From: Candidatus Omnitrophica bacterium UBA6253
GTDB lineage: Bacteria > Omnitrophota > Gorgyraeia > Gygaellales > Profunditerraquicolaceae
Length of the DNA: 64,000 nt
Direction of reading: 5' to 3'
NCBI GenBank assembly: GCA_002441245.1
Contig: DJVP01000012.1
Location: 116,547-180,546, forward strand
The notes under the pieces were generated by a model, which saw only the letters and a list, made by a program, of their open reading frames with translations, did not search any database and was not told the DNA's origin. A program made the position numbers and the translations under genes. Positions 8,297 to 17,911 of this stretch are shown here, one piece after another; the stretch's first letter is position 1, and every line of letters begins with the position of its first letter.

Positions 8297-9877
8297 CTAC
8301 TGATGCACCTGGTAATCTATATTAGGGAAGAGATTGTCCTTATATTCAATATCTGAAAGCCAATTCTCGTTAATATTATTGGACTTGACATCTTCATAGA
8401 TCCGATTAAACCTTAAAAGATGATCTTTGGTACGGCGCACCGCATAACTTGTATGCGTTCCCGTACCCAGGATAAATGCCCAATCCGAACTTTGTGCCAA
8501 TAGTAATTCACGTAAAGCCTGATTTAAAGCCCTGCGCAATAAACCTTGAGCCTGGGGAAAACTTCTGGACAACTCACTCATTCGTTCTGAAGCCACATGC
8601 AAGTGCCGATAGATCCAGTCATTTGTGCCTTGAAGCCACATCTCCGAATACCCTTTATAGCCCCAGCTGGAAAGCGAAGGAGTAATCACCTGATTACGCG
8701 GATTCTCTGCCAGGTATTCCGAGGGAGTGATCATGCGGATCTCGTTCTGGTCGCAGGCGACTTTACGGAAAAGAAAATCCAGCCACATCGGCCCCTCATA
8801 CCACCAATGCCCAAATAGCTCGGCGTCATACGGCGAGACAATAATCGGTGCCTTACCCATAAGGTCATTAAGGTAACTTGCCTGTTTCTGGCGGTTGAAC
8901 ATAAAATTTCCGGCATGTTCGGCTGCCCGGTCCCTTGCCCACTCCGGGACATATGGCTCCTTATGGTTGCCTGTGCCGGTAATACGGTAATATTTTATCC
9001 CCGTATTGATACGTACTCCGTCGGGATGAATATATGGTTTGATATAATCAAACTCAAGGTCAAAACCTATATCGCGGTAAAACTCCCGGTAGTTATAATC
9101 TCCTGGATATCCTTCGATAGAACTCCAGACCTGTTTTGAAGACTCCAGGTCCCTGCCAAAAGCAGCTACCCCTGTACCCTTACAATAAACAGGGGCAAAC
9201 ACTCCATATTTAGGCCGAGGCGTACCATGCAGCAGGCCGTGAGAATCAGTAAAAAAATAACGGATCCCCGCTTCACGAAGTATCTCATCATGCCCGGGGC
9301 AAAAACCGCATTCAGGAAGCCAGATACCGCGCGGCCTTCTGCCAAATACACCTTCATAGTGGTCCGCTGCCACCTTTACCTGCGCGCGTACCGAATCCCG
9401 GCAAACATCCATAAGCGGGAAAAATCCATGCGTAGCTCCGCAGGTAATTATCTCAAGCTTGCCTAAATCCTGGAATTTCTTAAAGGCATACACCAGATTA
9501 TTGTTATATTTCTGAAAGGTATCCCGGGCATGCGAGAATTTGATAAAATACATTTCCGCCAGGTGCCTGAACGCCTCCTGCCACTTTGTCCTCTCTATTT
9601 CTTTTTGGGACAATTCGATGAGCTTATTTATATGCTTTAAATAACGCTCCTGCAAAAGCTGGTCTGAAAGCATTGAAATAAGCGTAGGGCTTAATGTCAT
9701 GGTAATCCGGAAGTCTATACCGTCGGCAACCAGCCCTTCAAAAACAGAAATCAAAGGTACATAAGTCTCAGTGATTGCCTCATAAAGCCAATCCTCTTCC
9801 AGGAAATTTTCATGTTCCGGATGCCGCACAAAAGGCAAATGTCCATGCAAAACTAAACAAAGGTATCCTTTAGCCAT
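8297..9877 (-). CDS. GH57-family 1,4-alpha-glucan branching enzyme
   Basis: N-terminus LVLHGHLPFV and GH57 (DUF1957-type) architecture, 526 aa. Confidence 0.7.
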   Translation of the reverse strand: MAKGYLCLVLHGHLPFVRHPEHENFLEEDWLYEAITETYVPLISVFEGLVADGIDFRITMTLSPTLISMLSDQLLQERYLKHINKLIELSQKEIERTKWQEAFRHLAEMYFIKFSHARDTFQKYNNNLVYAFKKFQDLGKLEIITCGATHGFFPLMDVCRDSVRAQVKVAADHYEGVFGRRPRGIWLPECGFCPGHDEILREAGIRYFFTDSHGLLHGTPRPKYGVFAPVYCKGTGVAAFGRDLESSKQVWSSIEGYPGDYNYREFYRDIGFDLEFDYIKPYIHPDGVRINTGIKYYRITGTGNHKEPYVPEWARDRAAEHAGNFMFNRQKQASYLNDLMGKAPIIVSPYDAELFGHWWYEGPMWLDFLFRKVACDQNEIRMITPSEYLAENPRNQVITPSLSSWGYKGYSEMWLQGTNDWIYRHLHVASERMSELSRSFPQAQGLLRRALNQALRELLLAQSSDWAFILGTGTHTSYAVRRTKDHLLRFNRIYEDVKSNNINENWLSDIEYKDNLFPNIDYQVHQ

Positions 9878-9881
9878 AGGT

Positions 9882-10922
9882 TTATCTGGTCTCTCGGGTT
9901 ACGATTGGAGTAATAGTACGCTCTTCTAATTTATCCGCGGAGGTCGCTTTAACCGGTATTACCTGTTTGCTATCCGGCAAATAATAGCGTAAGGTAAAAG
10001 TCCCGTCGGGCCTTAAATTAATCGGCTGCCCCTGCACTGTAACTTTTGCATCAGGTTCAGTAGCTCCATAGACAATTAGTTCACAATCTACTTTCATCCA
10101 AAAACTTCTCTCCTTAACTGCTTTTCTTACGGGGCTAGAGGATATGCCTGAGCTAAATAACCCCTGCTTTGTGCGTTCCTGCCAGGCACGGCCTACCGGG
10201 GAACTTTTACCCAAACCAAAACCCATACCATAAAGCCTGGCAAATATATCTTCAGGGATCATCCATTCTTCATCGGTAATCCACGACGGCCCATCCAATG
10301 GCGTCGAAACAACATTCGAACGTAAAATAGTAATAAACCTGCCATCGGTTAACATCAACCCCAAATCTACACACCAGGAACGCCCGGGGCCTGCCGTATC
10401 TATATACCAGCTGTTGGCAAAATCATTGTAATGAATATCAAAGAAACTATTGGCATTAAAACCGTTAAAGATAATATTAGTAACATCATAAACCCTTAAA
10501 ACCTTTTTTGCACGATAGAAATCGTCACCTAATTTACTCTTTAATCCTTCAATGGTTTGGTTCCTCATCTCCCAGTAAGTATGCAGCCAGCGCGGATCGC
10601 GTACCTGCAAAATAATCTTATCCTGGTCATAACAAAAAGGGAGATCCTGCAGTGCCGTACTTCTGGGGCGGGTATCTTCCGGATGAGAGAATTTTGTATT
10701 GACGGCAACAGTCTCCTGAAAACCAGGGATATCCCTAGATGCAGAAACCGCTGGACCAGAAACAGGAGATTTCTTTTTCTTCGGTTTTAAAGTTACGTTC
10801 TTGGAAGAGATGATTTTCTTTAGTTTGTCTTTTACTTTCTTTAATATTTTCATCAGCCCGCCTCCCTCTAATAAAAAAGGGGGATTATCTCCCCTTTTTA
10901 TAGAACAGTTACTTCCGTTCAT
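9882..10922 (-). CDS. Hypothetical protein with lysine-rich N-terminus (DUF4912-like partner of GH57?)
   Basis: Lies immediately downstream of the GH57 enzyme and has no catalytic motifs I recognise. DUF4912 assignment is from memory of typical GH57 neighbourhoods. Confidence 0.4.
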   Translation of the reverse strand: MNGSNCSIKRGDNPPFLLEGGGLMKILKKVKDKLKKIISSKNVTLKPKKKKSPVSGPAVSASRDIPGFQETVAVNTKFSHPEDTRPRSTALQDLPFCYDQDKIILQVRDPRWLHTYWEMRNQTIEGLKSKLGDDFYRAKKVLRVYDVTNIIFNGFNANSFFDIHYNDFANSWYIDTAGPGRSWCVDLGLMLTDGRFITILRSNVVSTPLDGPSWITDEEWMIPEDIFARLYGMGFGLGKSSPVGRAWQERTKQGLFSSGISSSPVRKAVKERSFWMKVDCELIVYGATEPDAKVTVQGQPINLRPDGTFTLRYYLPDSKQVIPVKATSADKLEERTITPIVTRETR

Positions 10923-13308: not shown

Positions 13309-14547
13309 TTATGGTGTCATCGTAAAAATCTTATGCGCGATATCCGGATACCTGGCGATAAAATTCAACTCATCATCAACCAAGGGTTTCTGGTTATGCA
13401 CGTTAGCATACCTGACTAATTCCAATATACGCGTGGCCTCGGCATCATCCTTAAAAGGTACCTCCAGTTTTTCATAAACATTGCGGAAACCCTTGATGCC
13501 AGAATATTCTCCAGCAGTGATCTTTCTGCCTGTCTCAATTATTTCCGGCTCTCCCCGGCCAAGCTCCTCATAATCATAAAGTTCGTAATTGCGCCTGTCT
13601 TTCAATGCACCGTCGGCATGGATCCCCGATTCATGGGCAAAGGCATTAGCACCCACACCGGGCTGATTAATCGGGATCGGCACGCCAAAGGCATAAGAAG
13701 CATATTTACATATTTTCCAAGCCATCTTTAAATCCACCTTCTCGTCTAAATGATAACCCTGCATACCCTGGCCGAATTTAATTGCCAAAATTACCGAAAC
13801 CAGGTCAGCATTACCCGCACGTTCCCCCATGCCATTAACACAAGTATTAATATAAGCGTCTACGCCGGCATCATTGGCTGCTTTAGCTCCGGCAATGGAA
13901 TTAGCCACTACCAAACCCAAATCGTTGTGGCAATGGACCTCAATAGGCAAATTAACCGCTTCAGCGAGCGACTTTATACGCTCATAAATACTAAAAGGAG
14001 TATCACATCCTAACGTATCGCAGTAACGAATCCTTCCTGCGCCGGCATTTTTGGCTTTAACAGCAAAATCAATCAGGTATTTTATATCGGTACGCGAAGC
14101 ATCTTCGGCGTTTACCCCGACGGTCTCTGCGCCTAATTTTATTGCCTCCCCTACCGCCTCCTCCATCTCCTGGATTACCGATTGATGATCTAATTTACCT
14201 TTAAATTTATGGATAATCATCTGGTCGCTGGTAGAGATAGAAAGATTTATGTATTTTAAATGCGGCACCAGTTTAAAGGCAGCTTTTACATCCTCTTTTG
14301 TCGCACGTAACCAGCCGCTTAACCTGATATTAGAAAACCCCCCTAATTTAATCAATTCTAAATTAGCATTAAGGTAATTTGTTTCATGGCGAGTGAGCGG
14401 GAAACCAAACTCCGATTGAAAAACTCCCATTTGATCCAGATACCAGTTAATCATAGTTTTCTGCAGTTTCGACAAACAGATACGCGAGGTCTGTACCCCG
14501 TCGCGATTAGTTACATCAAGCAGATAAATCTTATGTTTATGTGTCAT
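13309..14547 (-). CDS. HMGL-like DRE-TIM metallolyase (homocitrate/citramalate/isopropylmalate synthase family, short form)
   Basis: LLDVTNRDGVQ, HCHNDLGL, GERAGNA and AHESGIHADG motifs with no LeuA C-terminal regulatory domain. The ORF could extend to 14583. Confidence 0.65.
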   Translation of the reverse strand: MTHKHKIYLLDVTNRDGVQTSRICLSKLQKTMINWYLDQMGVFQSEFGFPLTRHETNYLNANLELIKLGGFSNIRLSGWLRATKEDVKAAFKLVPHLKYINLSISTSDQMIIHKFKGKLDHQSVIQEMEEAVGEAIKLGAETVGVNAEDASRTDIKYLIDFAVKAKNAGAGRIRYCDTLGCDTPFSIYERIKSLAEAVNLPIEVHCHNDLGLVVANSIAGAKAANDAGVDAYINTCVNGMGERAGNADLVSVILAIKFGQGMQGYHLDEKVDLKMAWKICKYASYAFGVPIPINQPGVGANAFAHESGIHADGALKDRRNYELYDYEELGRGEPEIIETGRKITAGEYSGIKGFRNVYEKLEVPFKDDAEATRILELVRYANVHNQKPLVDDELNFIARYPDIAHKIFTMTP

Positions 14548-14606
14548 ATTTACTCCTTGCCCAAAAAGGGTAGGCCCGCGCAATTCCTTATAAACGCGGG
14601 GCGTTG

Positions 14607-16328
14607 TTATTCTTTTATTATTTTTCTGAGTTCTTTTTTATCCGGCACCCCGTGCGAAGAAAATATCTGATAGTTATCTAAAAGATAACTCAGGCCAAAA
14701 CTAACCTGCACCTCTTTATTTAAAGCAATATTTTCCTTGAGCAAGAGCGTGCCTTCCGGCCCTTTAGCACAGGTTCGTATTTTTTGCGCGTCAGCCTCGG
14801 GAAGGCAATCCTCCCACCATGAACTATTAATATTCTTGGCGCGACAGATTAGATAATCCCAGAACTTCTGCGGATAATACTTCTGAATGCAACAGCTGCG
14901 CAGGTATTCCTCTGTTTCAAATAAACCGTTCCTAGTATCAAAACTATTCCCCTTCTCTACTGCCAGAAAGTGCAAACTTGGTTTAAATTCCCTTAACACC
15001 GAGAGAAGGCCTGCGGCATCTTTATCAAATATACTGAAAAACAAATCCAGGTTCCCCTTTCTAGGCTGGCGATTAATAAAATAAGATACCCCGCTTACCT
15101 GGGGCTTAAGCAGATATAAGCCGTCAATTAACTCCAGATTATTCTTAAAGTTGTCAAAATTATTTTCTTTTTCTACATCCTTGCCGATAATGTAAGCCGG
15201 TAAAAACTTAATTGATAAATTCTTGATCAACCCTTGAGCCCGCTCCAAATCAACATATTCAGCACTAATACCGGGAAATTGTTTTCTCAACAGTTCTATG
15301 ACCGGCTCCGTATTGCAGACAACACAGTCTTTAGAGCTTATTACAATCAAGTTCAGTTTATTCGGTTCAGGAAACAAACAGCTGGCCTTAAGTTCACCCG
15401 GGTTATGACAGCTACCGGCCAATCCATCCTTCTTACAGTTAGCATCGGAATAACAACGCGGCAGGATCGCCAGTATATCAGGATCATCGGCAATCTTATC
15501 TGACAAACGGATCTCTTCGGTTTTGCAGTTCAAAAGCTTGCCGCCTTTAACTTCTAGTGTCAGCTTCCCGAGCTTGCGCCCCTGCCAGGAAGGATGCACA
15601 ATAAAAGTGGAACCCACTTTAGTTTCCACGTCCTCTTTTATCGGATTAGACCCCCTAAAAAGTATATCTATATCCTTAACTTCAGAAATTAAATCCGAGT
15701 CTTCTTTTATACCCAAAGTACTTAAAACAATCACTACCTCCACACCTTCATTCTTAAGGCGGCTGACCAGCTGACCTATTGCTTTAGGCGCTGTAATCTT
15801 TAAACCTTCTGATTTCTGGCTGGCGGCTAGATTAGTCAAACCGATAATCCCGATCTTTACCCCGGAAACCTGTTTGACAATATACGGCTCCACTTTATCC
15901 GAATCTAAATTAACGCTTAAAAAGGCGGGATTGCTTTTCCTGGCGTTCTTTAGAAAGAAATCCTTGCCGAAATTAAACTCATCGCCGCTTATGCCAACCG
16001 CATCATAGCGCATCAACTCCATAGCCTTGAAGTTTACTTCAGAACGCTGCATATCCAACCGGGTATTCTGAGTATATTCATCCATCGGGCCTCCGGCGGT
16101 AAAAGCACCGCAGTCTAAAAGCAAAAGCCCCGGAAATTTCTTTCTTAATTCTTTTACCAGCGAAGCCCTGCGGGCAAGTCCGCCATCACGCTCTATAGGA
16201 CAGCTACAGGTATAAAGCATGGCATGGGTATTGCCGGTATAAAGTATAGTTATTTCTTTTGCGCAAAGATTGCCGGCACTCAATGCCAACAGTACAAAGA
16301 TAAAGAATATAGCTTTAACGCTTTTCAT
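14607..16328 (-). CDS. Secreted multidomain protein: 5'-nucleotidase/metallophosphatase-like N-domain with degenerate metal ligands plus Cys-rich thioredoxin-like C-terminal region
   Basis: Signal peptide. ITILYTGNTHAM...GGLARRASLV...LLLDCGA...GDEFN resembles the UshA/SoxB-type fold, but H/D ligands are replaced. C-terminal DCVVC and multiple Cys pairs. Confidence 0.5.
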   Translation of the reverse strand: MKSVKAIFFIFVLLALSAGNLCAKEITILYTGNTHAMLYTCSCPIERDGGLARRASLVKELRKKFPGLLLLDCGAFTAGGPMDEYTQNTRLDMQRSEVNFKAMELMRYDAVGISGDEFNFGKDFFLKNARKSNPAFLSVNLDSDKVEPYIVKQVSGVKIGIIGLTNLAASQKSEGLKITAPKAIGQLVSRLKNEGVEVVIVLSTLGIKEDSDLISEVKDIDILFRGSNPIKEDVETKVGSTFIVHPSWQGRKLGKLTLEVKGGKLLNCKTEEIRLSDKIADDPDILAILPRCYSDANCKKDGLAGSCHNPGELKASCLFPEPNKLNLIVISSKDCVVCNTEPVIELLRKQFPGISAEYVDLERAQGLIKNLSIKFLPAYIIGKDVEKENNFDNFKNNLELIDGLYLLKPQVSGVSYFINRQPRKGNLDLFFSIFDKDAAGLLSVLREFKPSLHFLAVEKGNSFDTRNGLFETEEYLRSCCIQKYYPQKFWDYLICRAKNINSSWWEDCLPEADAQKIRTCAKGPEGTLLLKENIALNKEVQVSFGLSYLLDNYQIFSSHGVPDKKELRKIIKE

Positions 16329-17911
16329 GTCCTGATAACTTTTACGGTTAAGATATTTTCTAATTCACGTATTTTATCCTGAATCTCCGGGCTAACCAGG
16401 CTATCTACATTTAAAACACTAATCGCCTTTCCCCCCTGTTGATCCCTGCCGAAGGTCATCGCGGCGATATTAATGCCGTTCTTGCCCATAAGTGTTCCCA
16501 GGCTCCCTATCAAACCGGGTTTATCCCAGTTGCGGATAAAGACCATTTCGCCAATCGGATATAACTCAAGGTAATAATCGTCAATCTTGACAATCCTCGG
16601 CTGTTTATTGCTGGAAAGCGTTCCAAAAACTTTTTTTACCTCTTTATCCGTCTTAATCTCTAGCTGGATAAGATTGACAAATTCCCCTTCTTGAGCCGAC
16701 TTTGATTCACGCAGTTTTATTCCTCTTTCCTTAAGCAAGGATACGGCGTTAACAAAATTTACTGTCTCCTTTAATATCGGTTCAAGCACGCCCTTAGCCA
16801 AAGCCATAGTTACAGGGCTTAAATCATACTTAGTAATTTCGCCGCTGTAATTTATAATTAACTCCTGGAACCTCCCCTCTACAAGCTGGGCAGTAAACAT
16901 ACCAAGTTTTTCCCCTAAATTAATATAAGGATTAAGAATTTTACAAACCTCCGCCTCCAAACATGGATAATTAGCGGCATTGCGTATGCCCTTGCCTAAA
17001 AGGGCGTCGCGCACAATCTCTGCTACTTCAATTGCCACGTTGACCTGAGCCTCCTCGGTAGAAGCGCCCAGATGCGGAGTAATAACTACATTATCGAGTT
17101 TTAAAAGTTCGTTCTCTGCGGAAAGCGGCTCATTTTCAAAAACATCCATTGCCGCCCCGGATACCTTTTGCTCTTTTAATGCCTTAACTAAAGCTGCCTC
17201 ATCAATTATCCCTCCACGGGCGCAATTTATTATACGCACCCCTTTTTTCATTAAGGCAAATTCTTTGTCAGAAATCATATGCCGGGTTTCATCAGTTAGC
17301 GGGGTATGCACTGTGATATAATCTGCCTCCTGCAGGACTTTTTTTAATTCCGCGATCTCAACCCCAATGCTCTCGGCAACCTCAGCCGACAAAAACGGAT
17401 CATACGCTAATATCTTCATTCCAAACGATAAAGCACGCTTGGCCACTTCTGAACCAATACGGCCAAAACCTACTATGCCAAGGGTTTTTCCATAGAGCTC
17501 TACACCCATAAACTTTGAACGCTTCCATTCCCCCTTCTTAGTTGAGGCATTCGCCTGCGGGATATTCCTGGAAAGGGCAAGGATCATACTAAAGGTATGC
17601 TCAGCGGTAGAAATAGTATTGCCCGCCGGAGTATTCATCACAATAATCCCTTTTTGCGTAGCTGCCTCCAAATCCACATTGTCAAGTCCGACCCCGGCGC
17701 GGCCGACAACCTTCAGTTTTTTAGCTGCCTGAATTATATCGCTGGTTACTTTGGTTGCGCTACGCACTACCAAAGCATCATAATCCTTGATGATCTCCTT
17801 TAGGGTATCCGGCTTTAAATCTGTCTTTACATCCACGACAAGTTCCTTGGATTCCCTAAACACCTTAATCCCCTCTTCTGACAATGCATCACTAACCAAG
17901 ACCTTGATCAT
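16325..17911 (-). CDS. serA: D-3-phosphoglycerate dehydrogenase with C-terminal ACT domain
   Basis: 2-hydroxyacid dehydrogenase motifs (GxGxxG, catalytic His), C-terminal ACT, 528 aa. Confidence 0.9.
   Translation of the reverse strand: MIKVLVSDALSEEGIKVFRESKELVVDVKTDLKPDTLKEIIKDYDALVVRSATKVTSDIIQAAKKLKVVGRAGVGLDNVDLEAATQKGIIVMNTPAGNTISTAEHTFSMILALSRNIPQANASTKKGEWKRSKFMGVELYGKTLGIVGFGRIGSEVAKRALSFGMKILAYDPFLSAEVAESIGVEIAELKKVLQEADYITVHTPLTDETRHMISDKEFALMKKGVRIINCARGGIIDEAALVKALKEQKVSGAAMDVFENEPLSAENELLKLDNVVITPHLGASTEEAQVNVAIEVAEIVRDALLGKGIRNAANYPCLEAEVCKILNPYINLGEKLGMFTAQLVEGRFQELIINYSGEITKYDLSPVTMALAKGVLEPILKETVNFVNAVSLLKERGIKLRESKSAQEGEFVNLIQLEIKTDKEVKKVFGTLSSNKQPRIVKIDDYYLELYPIGEMVFIRNWDKPGLIGSLGTLMGKNGINIAAMTFGRDQQGGKAISVLNVDSLVSPEIQDKIRELENILTVKVIRT

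Follow-up and report, generated by a model that had tools for sequence, protein, structure and literature searches.

From 2008 at the latest, selenoproteome surveys have listed a group of proteins named UshA-like (seleno)proteins (PMC2398784). Reviews list UshA-like families with CxU and CxxU motifs (U, selenocysteine) and with no function, the first family being traced to ocean metagenome surveys (PMC2398784, PMC9312934, PMC13188914). For almost twenty years, the UshA-like selenoprotein has been listed in prokaryotic selenoproteomes without any function being suggested for it. Two NCBIfam models describe the group. NF041198 (UshA_like_PCGU), to which the COG0737 UshA-like CxU selenoprotein corresponds (PMC2398784), joins an N-terminal domain (N-domain, profile positions ~7-300) to a c554-type multihaem cytochrome (~354-518), and NF049981, 'UshA-like (seleno)protein family 2', is a stand-alone N-domain of the same kind whose listed motif is CxxU. 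The present work concerns a gene, called X below, on a stretch of 64,000 nucleotides (the window) of Candidatus Omnitrophica bacterium UBA6253 (assembly GCA_002441245.1, contig DJVP01000012.1, positions 116,547 to 180,546). Its product can best be viewed as an architecturally new variant of this functionally orphan group, found so far in Omnitrophota and relatives only. It is predicted to be a periplasmic multi-domain thiol-redox protein and no phosphatase, a functional reading that is held with moderate confidence.

The gene and the parts of its product are the following.

14607..16328, minus strand: gene X, 573 amino acids, ATG start, stop codon at 14607-14609.
16260..16328, minus strand: signal peptide, residues 1-23, read from the sequence, conserved in the ortholog alignment and modelled by AlphaFold 2 (AF2) as a helix at residues 2-20.
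15462..16259, minus strand: degenerate 5'-nucleotidase-type metallophosphatase domain, residues 24-289 (N-domain of the UshA-like (seleno)protein type), from fold, homology and ligand columns.
16197..16211, minus strand: T-C41-S-C43-P loop (family consensus P-C-S-C-P), from translation, conservation and the alignment of a TGA codon to C43.
15372..15461, minus strand: four-cysteine mini-domain, residues 290-319 (C292, C298, C307, C317), from cysteine conservation.
15054..15371, minus strand: small thioredoxin-like domain, residues 320-425, with C335-V-V-C338 and an invariant P377.
14610..15053, minus strand: GILT/DsbA-like thioredoxin-fold domain with a helical insert, residues 426-573.

The gene is real, and full-length counterparts of it occur in hundreds of genomes of Candidatus Omnitrophota. 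Searching 5.8 billion proteins returned more than 540 homologs of the 573-residue protein; nearly all of the best 120 span its full length, with identities of 59-88%, and every source name that is given reads 'Candidatus Omnitrophota/Omnitrophica'. Full-length orthologs at 47-100% identity amount to more than 200 sequences, and identity with the studied protein reaches 100% in one partial NCBI entry, with locus tag WC357_07370, and in one metagenome contig. Column counts given below refer to 99 orthologs, which were also used for the AF2 model; the latter has a mean predicted local distance difference test (pLDDT) score of 86.6 and a predicted template modelling (pTM) score of 0.61 for the whole protein, and a separate model of residues 286-573 reaches a pLDDT of 90.8. 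The wider family was collected by a profile search of 1.84 billion representatives, yielding 11,102 relatives (427 below 1e-30), and architectures were read from the best 150 of them (representatives at 50% clustering) after alignment to the family hidden Markov model.

A first reading of the window from its letters alone, referred to here as the sequence-only reading, had described gene X as encoding a large secreted protein. The open reading frame contains every string quoted there (ITILYTGNTHAM, GGLARRASLV, LLLDCGA, GDEFNFG, CSCP and DCVVC), and secretion agrees with the conserved N-terminal signal peptide, made up of MKSVK, a hydrophobic core and a final LCA, with KE following the cleavage point (MKSVKAIFFIFVLLALSAGNLCA, then KE) and cleavage placed after LCA/LYA. 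A lipoprotein reading was rejected, as no lipobox is found and C22 is not conserved (Tyr in 77/99 orthologs).

Residues ~24-290 are homologous to the N-domains of the 5'-nucleotidase/UshA/SoxB proteins, far beyond chance. Matches to NCBIfam models go down to 1e-35 (SoxB at 3.8e-21), PDB searches gave YfkN at 2.6e-10 with phmmer and 9.5e-19 with the family profile, and Foldseek paired the AF2 N-domain with CD73, UshA, YfkN and NadN at E values of 1e-18 to 1e-16, with ~300 aligned columns and a root-mean-square deviation of 4-5 Å against 5'-nucleotidase-type structures. The studied protein shares with the phosphoesterases UshA, CD73, YfkN and SoxB the N-domain fold, the order and spacing of five motifs and a periplasmic/extracellular location, whereas the dimetal ligands (bar the motif I His) and the catalytic dyad are replaced and no C-terminal nucleotide-binding domain is present. 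Ligand positions were assigned from alignments to YfkN, the E. coli nucleotidase 3ivd and snake-venom 5'-nucleotidase, together with the ortholog counts.

Motif I Asp: N33 here; variable among orthologs (Q/N/S/A).
Motif I His: H35 here; His in 99/99.
Motif II Asp: A75 here (G74-A75); S/N/A among orthologs.
Motif III Asn: G115 here; S/P/G among orthologs.
Catalytic His: D116 here; Asp in 93/99.
Asp of the His-Asp dyad: N119 here; Asn in 99/99.
Motif IV His: T204 here; mostly Thr among orthologs.
Motif V His: S227 here; variable among orthologs.

Of the six canonical metal ligands, five are lost and only H35 of motif I survives; the catalytic His-Asp dyad is gone as well. No Pfam family was matched by the whole protein or its C-terminal fragments even at E<=10, Metallophos and 5_nucleotid_C included, and the 5'-nucleotidase C-terminal substrate-binding domain is absent, the C-terminal half folding as thioredoxin plus GILT/DsbA-like domains. 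Homologs are labelled 'hypothetical protein' by their sources, '5'-nucleotidase' by JGI and, in one NCBI entry, 'bifunctional UDP-sugar hydrolase/5'-nucleotidase'. These annotations and the significant fold homology are what can be said for an ordinary 5'-nucleotidase or phosphoesterase; against them stand the replacement of ligands and dyad, several by variable residues, the missing C-terminal domain, the lack of Pfam matches and equivalog scores that are all far under their cut-offs. Such a reading deserves next to no credence: the loss of ligands and dyad excludes it, the pipeline label '5'-nucleotidase' is corrected accordingly, and the studied protein is expected, from its residues, to be devoid of phosphoesterase activity.

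The 5'-nucleotidase-like fold put forward by the sequence-only reading is thus borne out by NCBIfam, PDB-profile and Foldseek matches, and its pseudo-phosphatase holds as a metallophosphatase fold with its ligands gone. The profile search that it proposed (Metallophos, 5_nucleotid_C) gave no Pfam match, the homology being found by other profiles. Its list of ligand substitutions (Tyr, Asn, Cys, Ala and Asp/Glu) needs amendment, as the loss itself is confirmed by alignment and orthologs but H35 is kept, Tyr occupies no ligand position and C73 lies beside motif II rather than at it. Nucleotide sensing, also suggested there, and nucleotide binding are not supported: the protein lacks the substrate-binding C-terminal domain, and no feature of it hints at nucleotides.

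The old site may have been remodelled instead of abandoned. In that case, H35, C41, C43 and C73 (with D72/D116/E117) would bind a single ion of Zn, Fe, Cu or Ni, and the domain would be a metal sensor, a metal chaperone or a metalloenzyme with new chemistry rather than a thiol-disulfide catalyst. The full retention of H35 is in keeping with this, as are the gain of C73, which sits two positions ahead of the lost Asp of motif II and is Cys in 92/99 orthologs, the conservation of D72, D116, E117 and N119, and the E-x-H, D-E, H and H that many distant relatives keep at the old ligand positions (E33/H35/D115/E116/H204/H227). CxC motifs and selenocysteine can also be metal ligands, as in CCS and [NiFeSe] hydrogenase. 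Nevertheless, a relative of the selenocysteine type (L013, below) has Ala at the positions of both H35 and C73, the window clade is without the motif IV and V histidines (H204 and H227) kept by many relatives, and partners that carry electrons by thiols or haems fit turnover better than storage. A metal-binding role is judged quite unlikely. As to a possible disulfide between C73 and C268, the two columns show no co-variation among the 99 orthologs.

The N-domain has a Cys-x-Cys loop just after its first metal motif. C41 and C43 are each present in 99/99 orthologs, and both are kept in 101/116 N-domains of all architectures among the 150 representatives. The CSCP string, previously taken for an insertion, lies in a loop shorter than that of YfkN and CD73 (alignment gaps fall in the query) and belongs to the family signature. 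As read from the alignments, the P-C-x-C/U loop is the signature of the UshA-like (seleno)protein group, and C43 is the selenocysteine position of relatives. The best NCBIfam match is NF041198, at 1.3e-35 between residues 11-268 and profile positions 7-275, with a score of 122.9 bits that is below the cut-off of 275; the next is NF049981 (E 3.1e-21), with 76 bits, again below its cut-off of 140, its 262-position profile being covered end to end by residues 26-289. With NF041198 the studied protein has in common the degenerate N-domain, the P-C-x-[C/U] loop followed by GG-x-ARR, and secretion. It differs in carrying Cys instead of selenocysteine, in the loss of the motif IV/V histidines and in its partner, the c554-type cytochrome being replaced by the four-cysteine mini-domain, the thioredoxin-like CxxC domain and the GILT/DsbA-like domain. 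NF049981 differs by its CxxU motif, where CxC stands here, and by the three further domains of the studied protein.

The equivalence of C43 and selenocysteine is seen in locus L013 of a Desulfobacter sp. chromosome (OY762069.1, 5962-6963), where a UshA-like gene has an in-frame TGA at nucleotide 6049, in the context ...LVLPCG-TGA-AVKKGGLARRA..., followed by ~300 in-frame residues of the same N-domain type. BLASTP aligns L013 with the studied N-domain at 31% identity (E 5e-33), and PCG[U]AVKK-GGLARRA faces TCSCPIERDGGLARRA, so that the TGA stands opposite C43 and the preceding Cys opposite C41. From this alignment, L013 is likely a selenoprotein. It scores 165 bits against NF041198, under the cut-off of 275, and is without a cytochrome domain. 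A hairpin after its UGA (8-bp GC stem ~20 nucleotides downstream) is not significant against shuffles (z -1.3) and provides no evidence for a selenocysteine insertion sequence. A locus search with a two-sequence NF041198-type alignment mostly retrieved ordinary 5'-nucleotidases through the generic VDAGDMF pattern, L013 being the only selenocysteine form, and a homolog search with the cytochrome-type copy P0149 returned two proteins and no selenocysteine-containing sequence. That gene X itself encodes a selenoprotein was rejected, Cys being encoded in 84/84 Omnitrophota orthologs. Pairs of homologs with selenocysteine in one and Cys in the other mark catalytic redox residues.

The C-terminal half begins with the mini-domain, whose four cysteines (C292/C298/C307/C317) are invariant in 99/99 orthologs and all present in 123/125 relatives. 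They probably form two structural disulfides, the pairing being a matter of prediction. Residues 320-425 adopt a thioredoxin fold with its CxxC at the N-terminus of the first helix; the C335/C338 pair, placed just before that helix, is found in 99/99 orthologs, and the invariant P377 sits where the cis-Pro facing a CxxC is expected. Residues 426-573 adopt a thioredoxin fold with a helical insertion, the closest folds being GILT and DsbA. In P0220, a distant relative, the homologous C-terminal domain passes Pfam GILT at 1.7e-21 and, like that of many other relatives, has an active-site 'CPYG'. Here, by comparison with the GILT (PF03227; mouse GILT 6nwx) and DsbA families, no Pfam match is obtained and the catalytic-Cys position is held by D435 (LDLFFSIFD435KDA versus LDLFVMSQCPYG in P0220 and others); therefore, this domain cannot do thiol chemistry itself. 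Its helical insert contains C480, C495, C508 and C520, invariant or nearly so, which together with the four mini-domain cysteines are probably engaged in structural disulfides. Of the Cys-rich thioredoxin-like modules announced by the sequence-only reading, two thioredoxin folds and several cysteine groups are indeed found, whereas the CxxC is restricted to the first. The 573-residue sequence contains no CxxCH haem motif.

Other members of the family combine the N-domain with different partners. Of the forms of at most 650 residues (~580 as in the studied protein), 44 combine CxC with CxxC, 10 show CxC alone, 8 CxxC alone and 2 neither motif. In those of ~780 residues, an extra GILT-like 'CPYG' domain is inserted and the thioredoxin-like CxxC is then usually absent (31/38); forms of ~900-1,200 residues add four CxxCH haem motifs. 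The cytochrome part of NF041198 was located through P0257, whose residues 252-413 match it, and P0149, which scores 376 bits, above the cut-off; the match of the studied protein to this profile ends at position 275 and is without the cytochrome. Across the family, as judged from domain content, the partner of the N-domain is always an electron carrier, namely haems, a thioredoxin-like domain with CxxC or a thiol domain of the GILT-like type.

Two relatives have unusual compositions. P0270 (777 residues) has a caspase-like Peptidase_C14 domain fused upstream of a UshA-like CxC domain and a GILT-like domain, an unexpected protease-redox fusion. P0220 (L082:6001-7905, 634 residues) is without a UshA-like domain and has two GILT-like 'CPYG' domains flanking a four-cysteine mini-domain and a thioredoxin-like CxxC domain. 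Its contig may be archaeal, judging from the neighbouring genes for ThiI and a two-subunit PheRS; if so, the thioredoxin-GILT module would predate the Omnitrophota protein and have a wider distribution. The genes around L013, P0220 and P0149 give no functional hint.

In deeper Omnitrophota lineages, the slot that X occupies between serA and the HMGL-like gene or purA also contains a gene for a membrane protein. In three loci (L089, L090 and L095), serA is followed by a gene for a 384-397-residue protein that unites a DUF1573 domain with a polytopic membrane domain, and then by an X ortholog of 583-591 residues, full length and 39-44% identical to the studied protein. In L086-88 and L091-92, the membrane protein is followed by stand-alone C-terminal modules (thioredoxin-GILT) of 307-331 residues, and in P0232 (L085:718-2700, 660 residues), located between serA and purA, DUF1573, membrane domain, thioredoxin-like CxxC and GILT-like domain are fused in one protein. 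Three such DUF1573-membrane genes are placed as follows.

L089:5001-6155: DUF1573-membrane gene.
L095:5001-6194: DUF1573-membrane gene.
L091:5001-6191: DUF1573-membrane gene.

The DUF1573-membrane family (~385 residues, 934 matches) is widespread in Omnitrophota and corresponds to no curated family. N-P-C and C-T-G-Q motifs are invariant in its membrane domain. One member, P0336, matches Pfam DsbD_TM (PF02683) with an E value of 5.4e-4 and 19.8 bits, below the gathering score of 27.1, a signal that arose only on scanning 44 family members; SfLAP is matched by 2/44 members (best E 2.4e-9), and the membrane domain of P0232 alone has no PDB sequence match and no useful Pfam match. Five homologs bear the JGI name 'cytochrome c biogenesis protein CcdA', and in P0353 and P0348 a periplasmic thioredoxin-like CxxC domain takes the place of DUF1573. 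From these sequence features, the membrane protein is only weakly DsbD/CcdA-like. The Ig-like DUF1573 domain has its own C-x-C, in the form SCSC or SCGC, and gives a weak match to the model of the OS_HP2 (seleno)proteins, OS_HP2 being listed in the literature as pfam07610 with a UxC/UGC motif.

The occurrence of the thioredoxin-GILT module without the N-domain, stand-alone or membrane-fused and in the same slot, speaks for a rival reading in which the C-terminal half is the working part. An envelope protein-disulfide oxidoreductase or isomerase, analogous to DsbA, DsbC or GILT, would act on secreted proteins through its thioredoxin-like CxxC and GILT/DsbA-like domains, leaving the UshA-like domain as a passive module for binding or oligomerisation and the CxC as a structural or regulatory disulfide. 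GILT and DsbA as closest folds, the status of a core gene with housekeeping synteny across the phylum and the HMMER alignment of C43 with the first Cys of the CD73 loop disulfide agree with this; CD73 has a structural disulfide in the loop equivalent to the C41-C43 loop. It is difficult to reconcile, however, with C41 and C43 being invariant and replaced by selenocysteine in relatives, as selenocysteine is not known to serve in structural bonds, with the fusion of the same N-domain to cytochromes in other phyla and with the absence of an active-site Cys from the GILT/DsbA-like domain of the studied protein. Such a role is rather unlikely.

The thiol-redox reading is preferred because selenocysteine occupies the C43 position in relatives, the partner modules are electron carriers and a DsbD_TM-like protein is linked to the gene in sister lineages. 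It was already one of the options of the sequence-only reading, with which these sequence data are consistent. In the proposed mechanism, the N-domain would have kept the 5'-nucleotidase fold, lost the dimetal site and taken the Cys41-x-Cys43 loop after the first metal motif as its working group. The C335/C338 pair of the fused thioredoxin-like domain would take up reducing equivalents and hand them on, by thiol-disulfide exchange, to C41/C43. The latter would then act on a periplasmic substrate, for which oxidised forms of sulfur or selenium, a peroxide and protein disulfides are candidates. For related lineages, the probable supplier of the CxxC domain is the DsbD/CcdA-like two-Cys membrane protein with its DUF1573 CxC domain; in the studied organism, a DsbD/CcdA-like supply or another donor would keep that domain reduced. 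The last GILT/DsbA-like domain would likely be a scaffold or a substrate-binding module. From these arrangements we infer in which direction electrons flow, that they are relayed within the molecule, what kind of substrate is used and that this genome has a membrane partner elsewhere.

Reductases made of a thioredoxin domain and a catalytic domain and fed by DsbD/CcdA are represented by Neisseria PilB (Trx-MsrA-MsrB), ScsB/ScsC and CcdA/ResA. The proposed system resembles them by its two-Cys membrane transporter, its periplasmic thioredoxin-fold CxxC carrier, its fused catalytic Cys domain and the adjacency or fusion of transporter and carrier, seen here in sister lineages. It differs in that the catalytic domain would be a metallophosphatase fold with CxC rather than Msr, Prx or DsbC, and in that its putative transporter is only weakly DsbD_TM-like and bears a DUF1573 CxC. 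A broader claim, that a metallophosphatase fold was turned into a metal-free thiol/selenol catalyst forming a new class of periplasmic reductases, its CxC/CxU fed either by a DsbD-like relay via DUF1573 (CxC) and thioredoxin (CxxC) or by multihaem cytochromes, is offered as a tentative possibility.

Several observations weigh against the thiol relay. Since CxC and CxxC do not strictly co-occur in the shorter forms, a relay cannot be a requirement throughout the family. Model confidence is low for the C41-C43 loop (pLDDT <50 at residues 42-46), and the retention of old ligand residues by many distant relatives suggests that metal may still take part in some family members. Lastly, the DsbD_TM match stays under the gathering score, the membrane gene is adjacent to gene X in none of the 80 loci of the window clade and the 64-kb window contains no copy of it.

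The N-domain is not novel as such, as it belongs to the UshA-like (seleno)protein group (NF041198/NF049981, PMC2398784); the novelty claimed for the protein by the sequence-only reading lies in its architecture and genomic linkage, since neither this architecture nor the linkage to a DUF1573-membrane protein is described in the literature searched. The Omnitrophota protein is a Cys-type relative of the orphan selenoprotein with a likely redox partner, the thioredoxin-like CxxC, built in. Together with the linked membrane protein of sister lineages, which resembles a thiol-electron transporter and bears a DUF1573 CxC (OS_HP2 family), it provides a concrete, testable pathway for two orphan families: if true, UshA-like CxU and OS_HP2/DUF1573 UxC would be joined in one envelope electron-transfer pathway. 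The protein would also be a case of an enzyme fold losing metal chemistry and gaining thiol chemistry, and its gene belongs to the syntenic core of a candidate phylum that has hardly been studied by experiment.

Gene X is embedded in a conserved neighbourhood, in the order aminotransferase, serA, X, HMGL-like synthase and purA, which is kept in a 65%-identical genome (L001) and in 80/80 metagenome loci with X at 47-100% identity. In this clade, the neighbours are housekeeping genes that give no functional hint, and the two adjacent ones serve as conserved synteny anchors, not as functional parts.

16325..17911, minus strand: serA (D-3-phosphoglycerate dehydrogenase), upstream neighbour.
13309..14583, minus strand: HMGL-like gene (citramalate/homocitrate synthase-type), downstream neighbour.

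The ATG of gene X overlaps the stop codon of serA (ACATGA; ATGA at 16325-16328), a stop/start overlap also kept in L001. The overlap suggests that translation of this predicted periplasmic redox protein is coupled to that of serine biosynthesis genes, with no evident functional reason for it.

The window has a G+C content of ~42-45%. No tRNA genes and no Rfam matches were found across its 64 kb. About 55 of the 60 open reading frames of at least 150 codons lie on the minus strand, and the plus-strand GC skew is negative in all 2-kb bins (-0.06 to -0.25). At 8297-10922, a GH57 gene of the branching-enzyme type (Glyco_hydro_57 + BE_C) precedes a gene for a DUF4912 protein, the same pair being present in the same order in L001.

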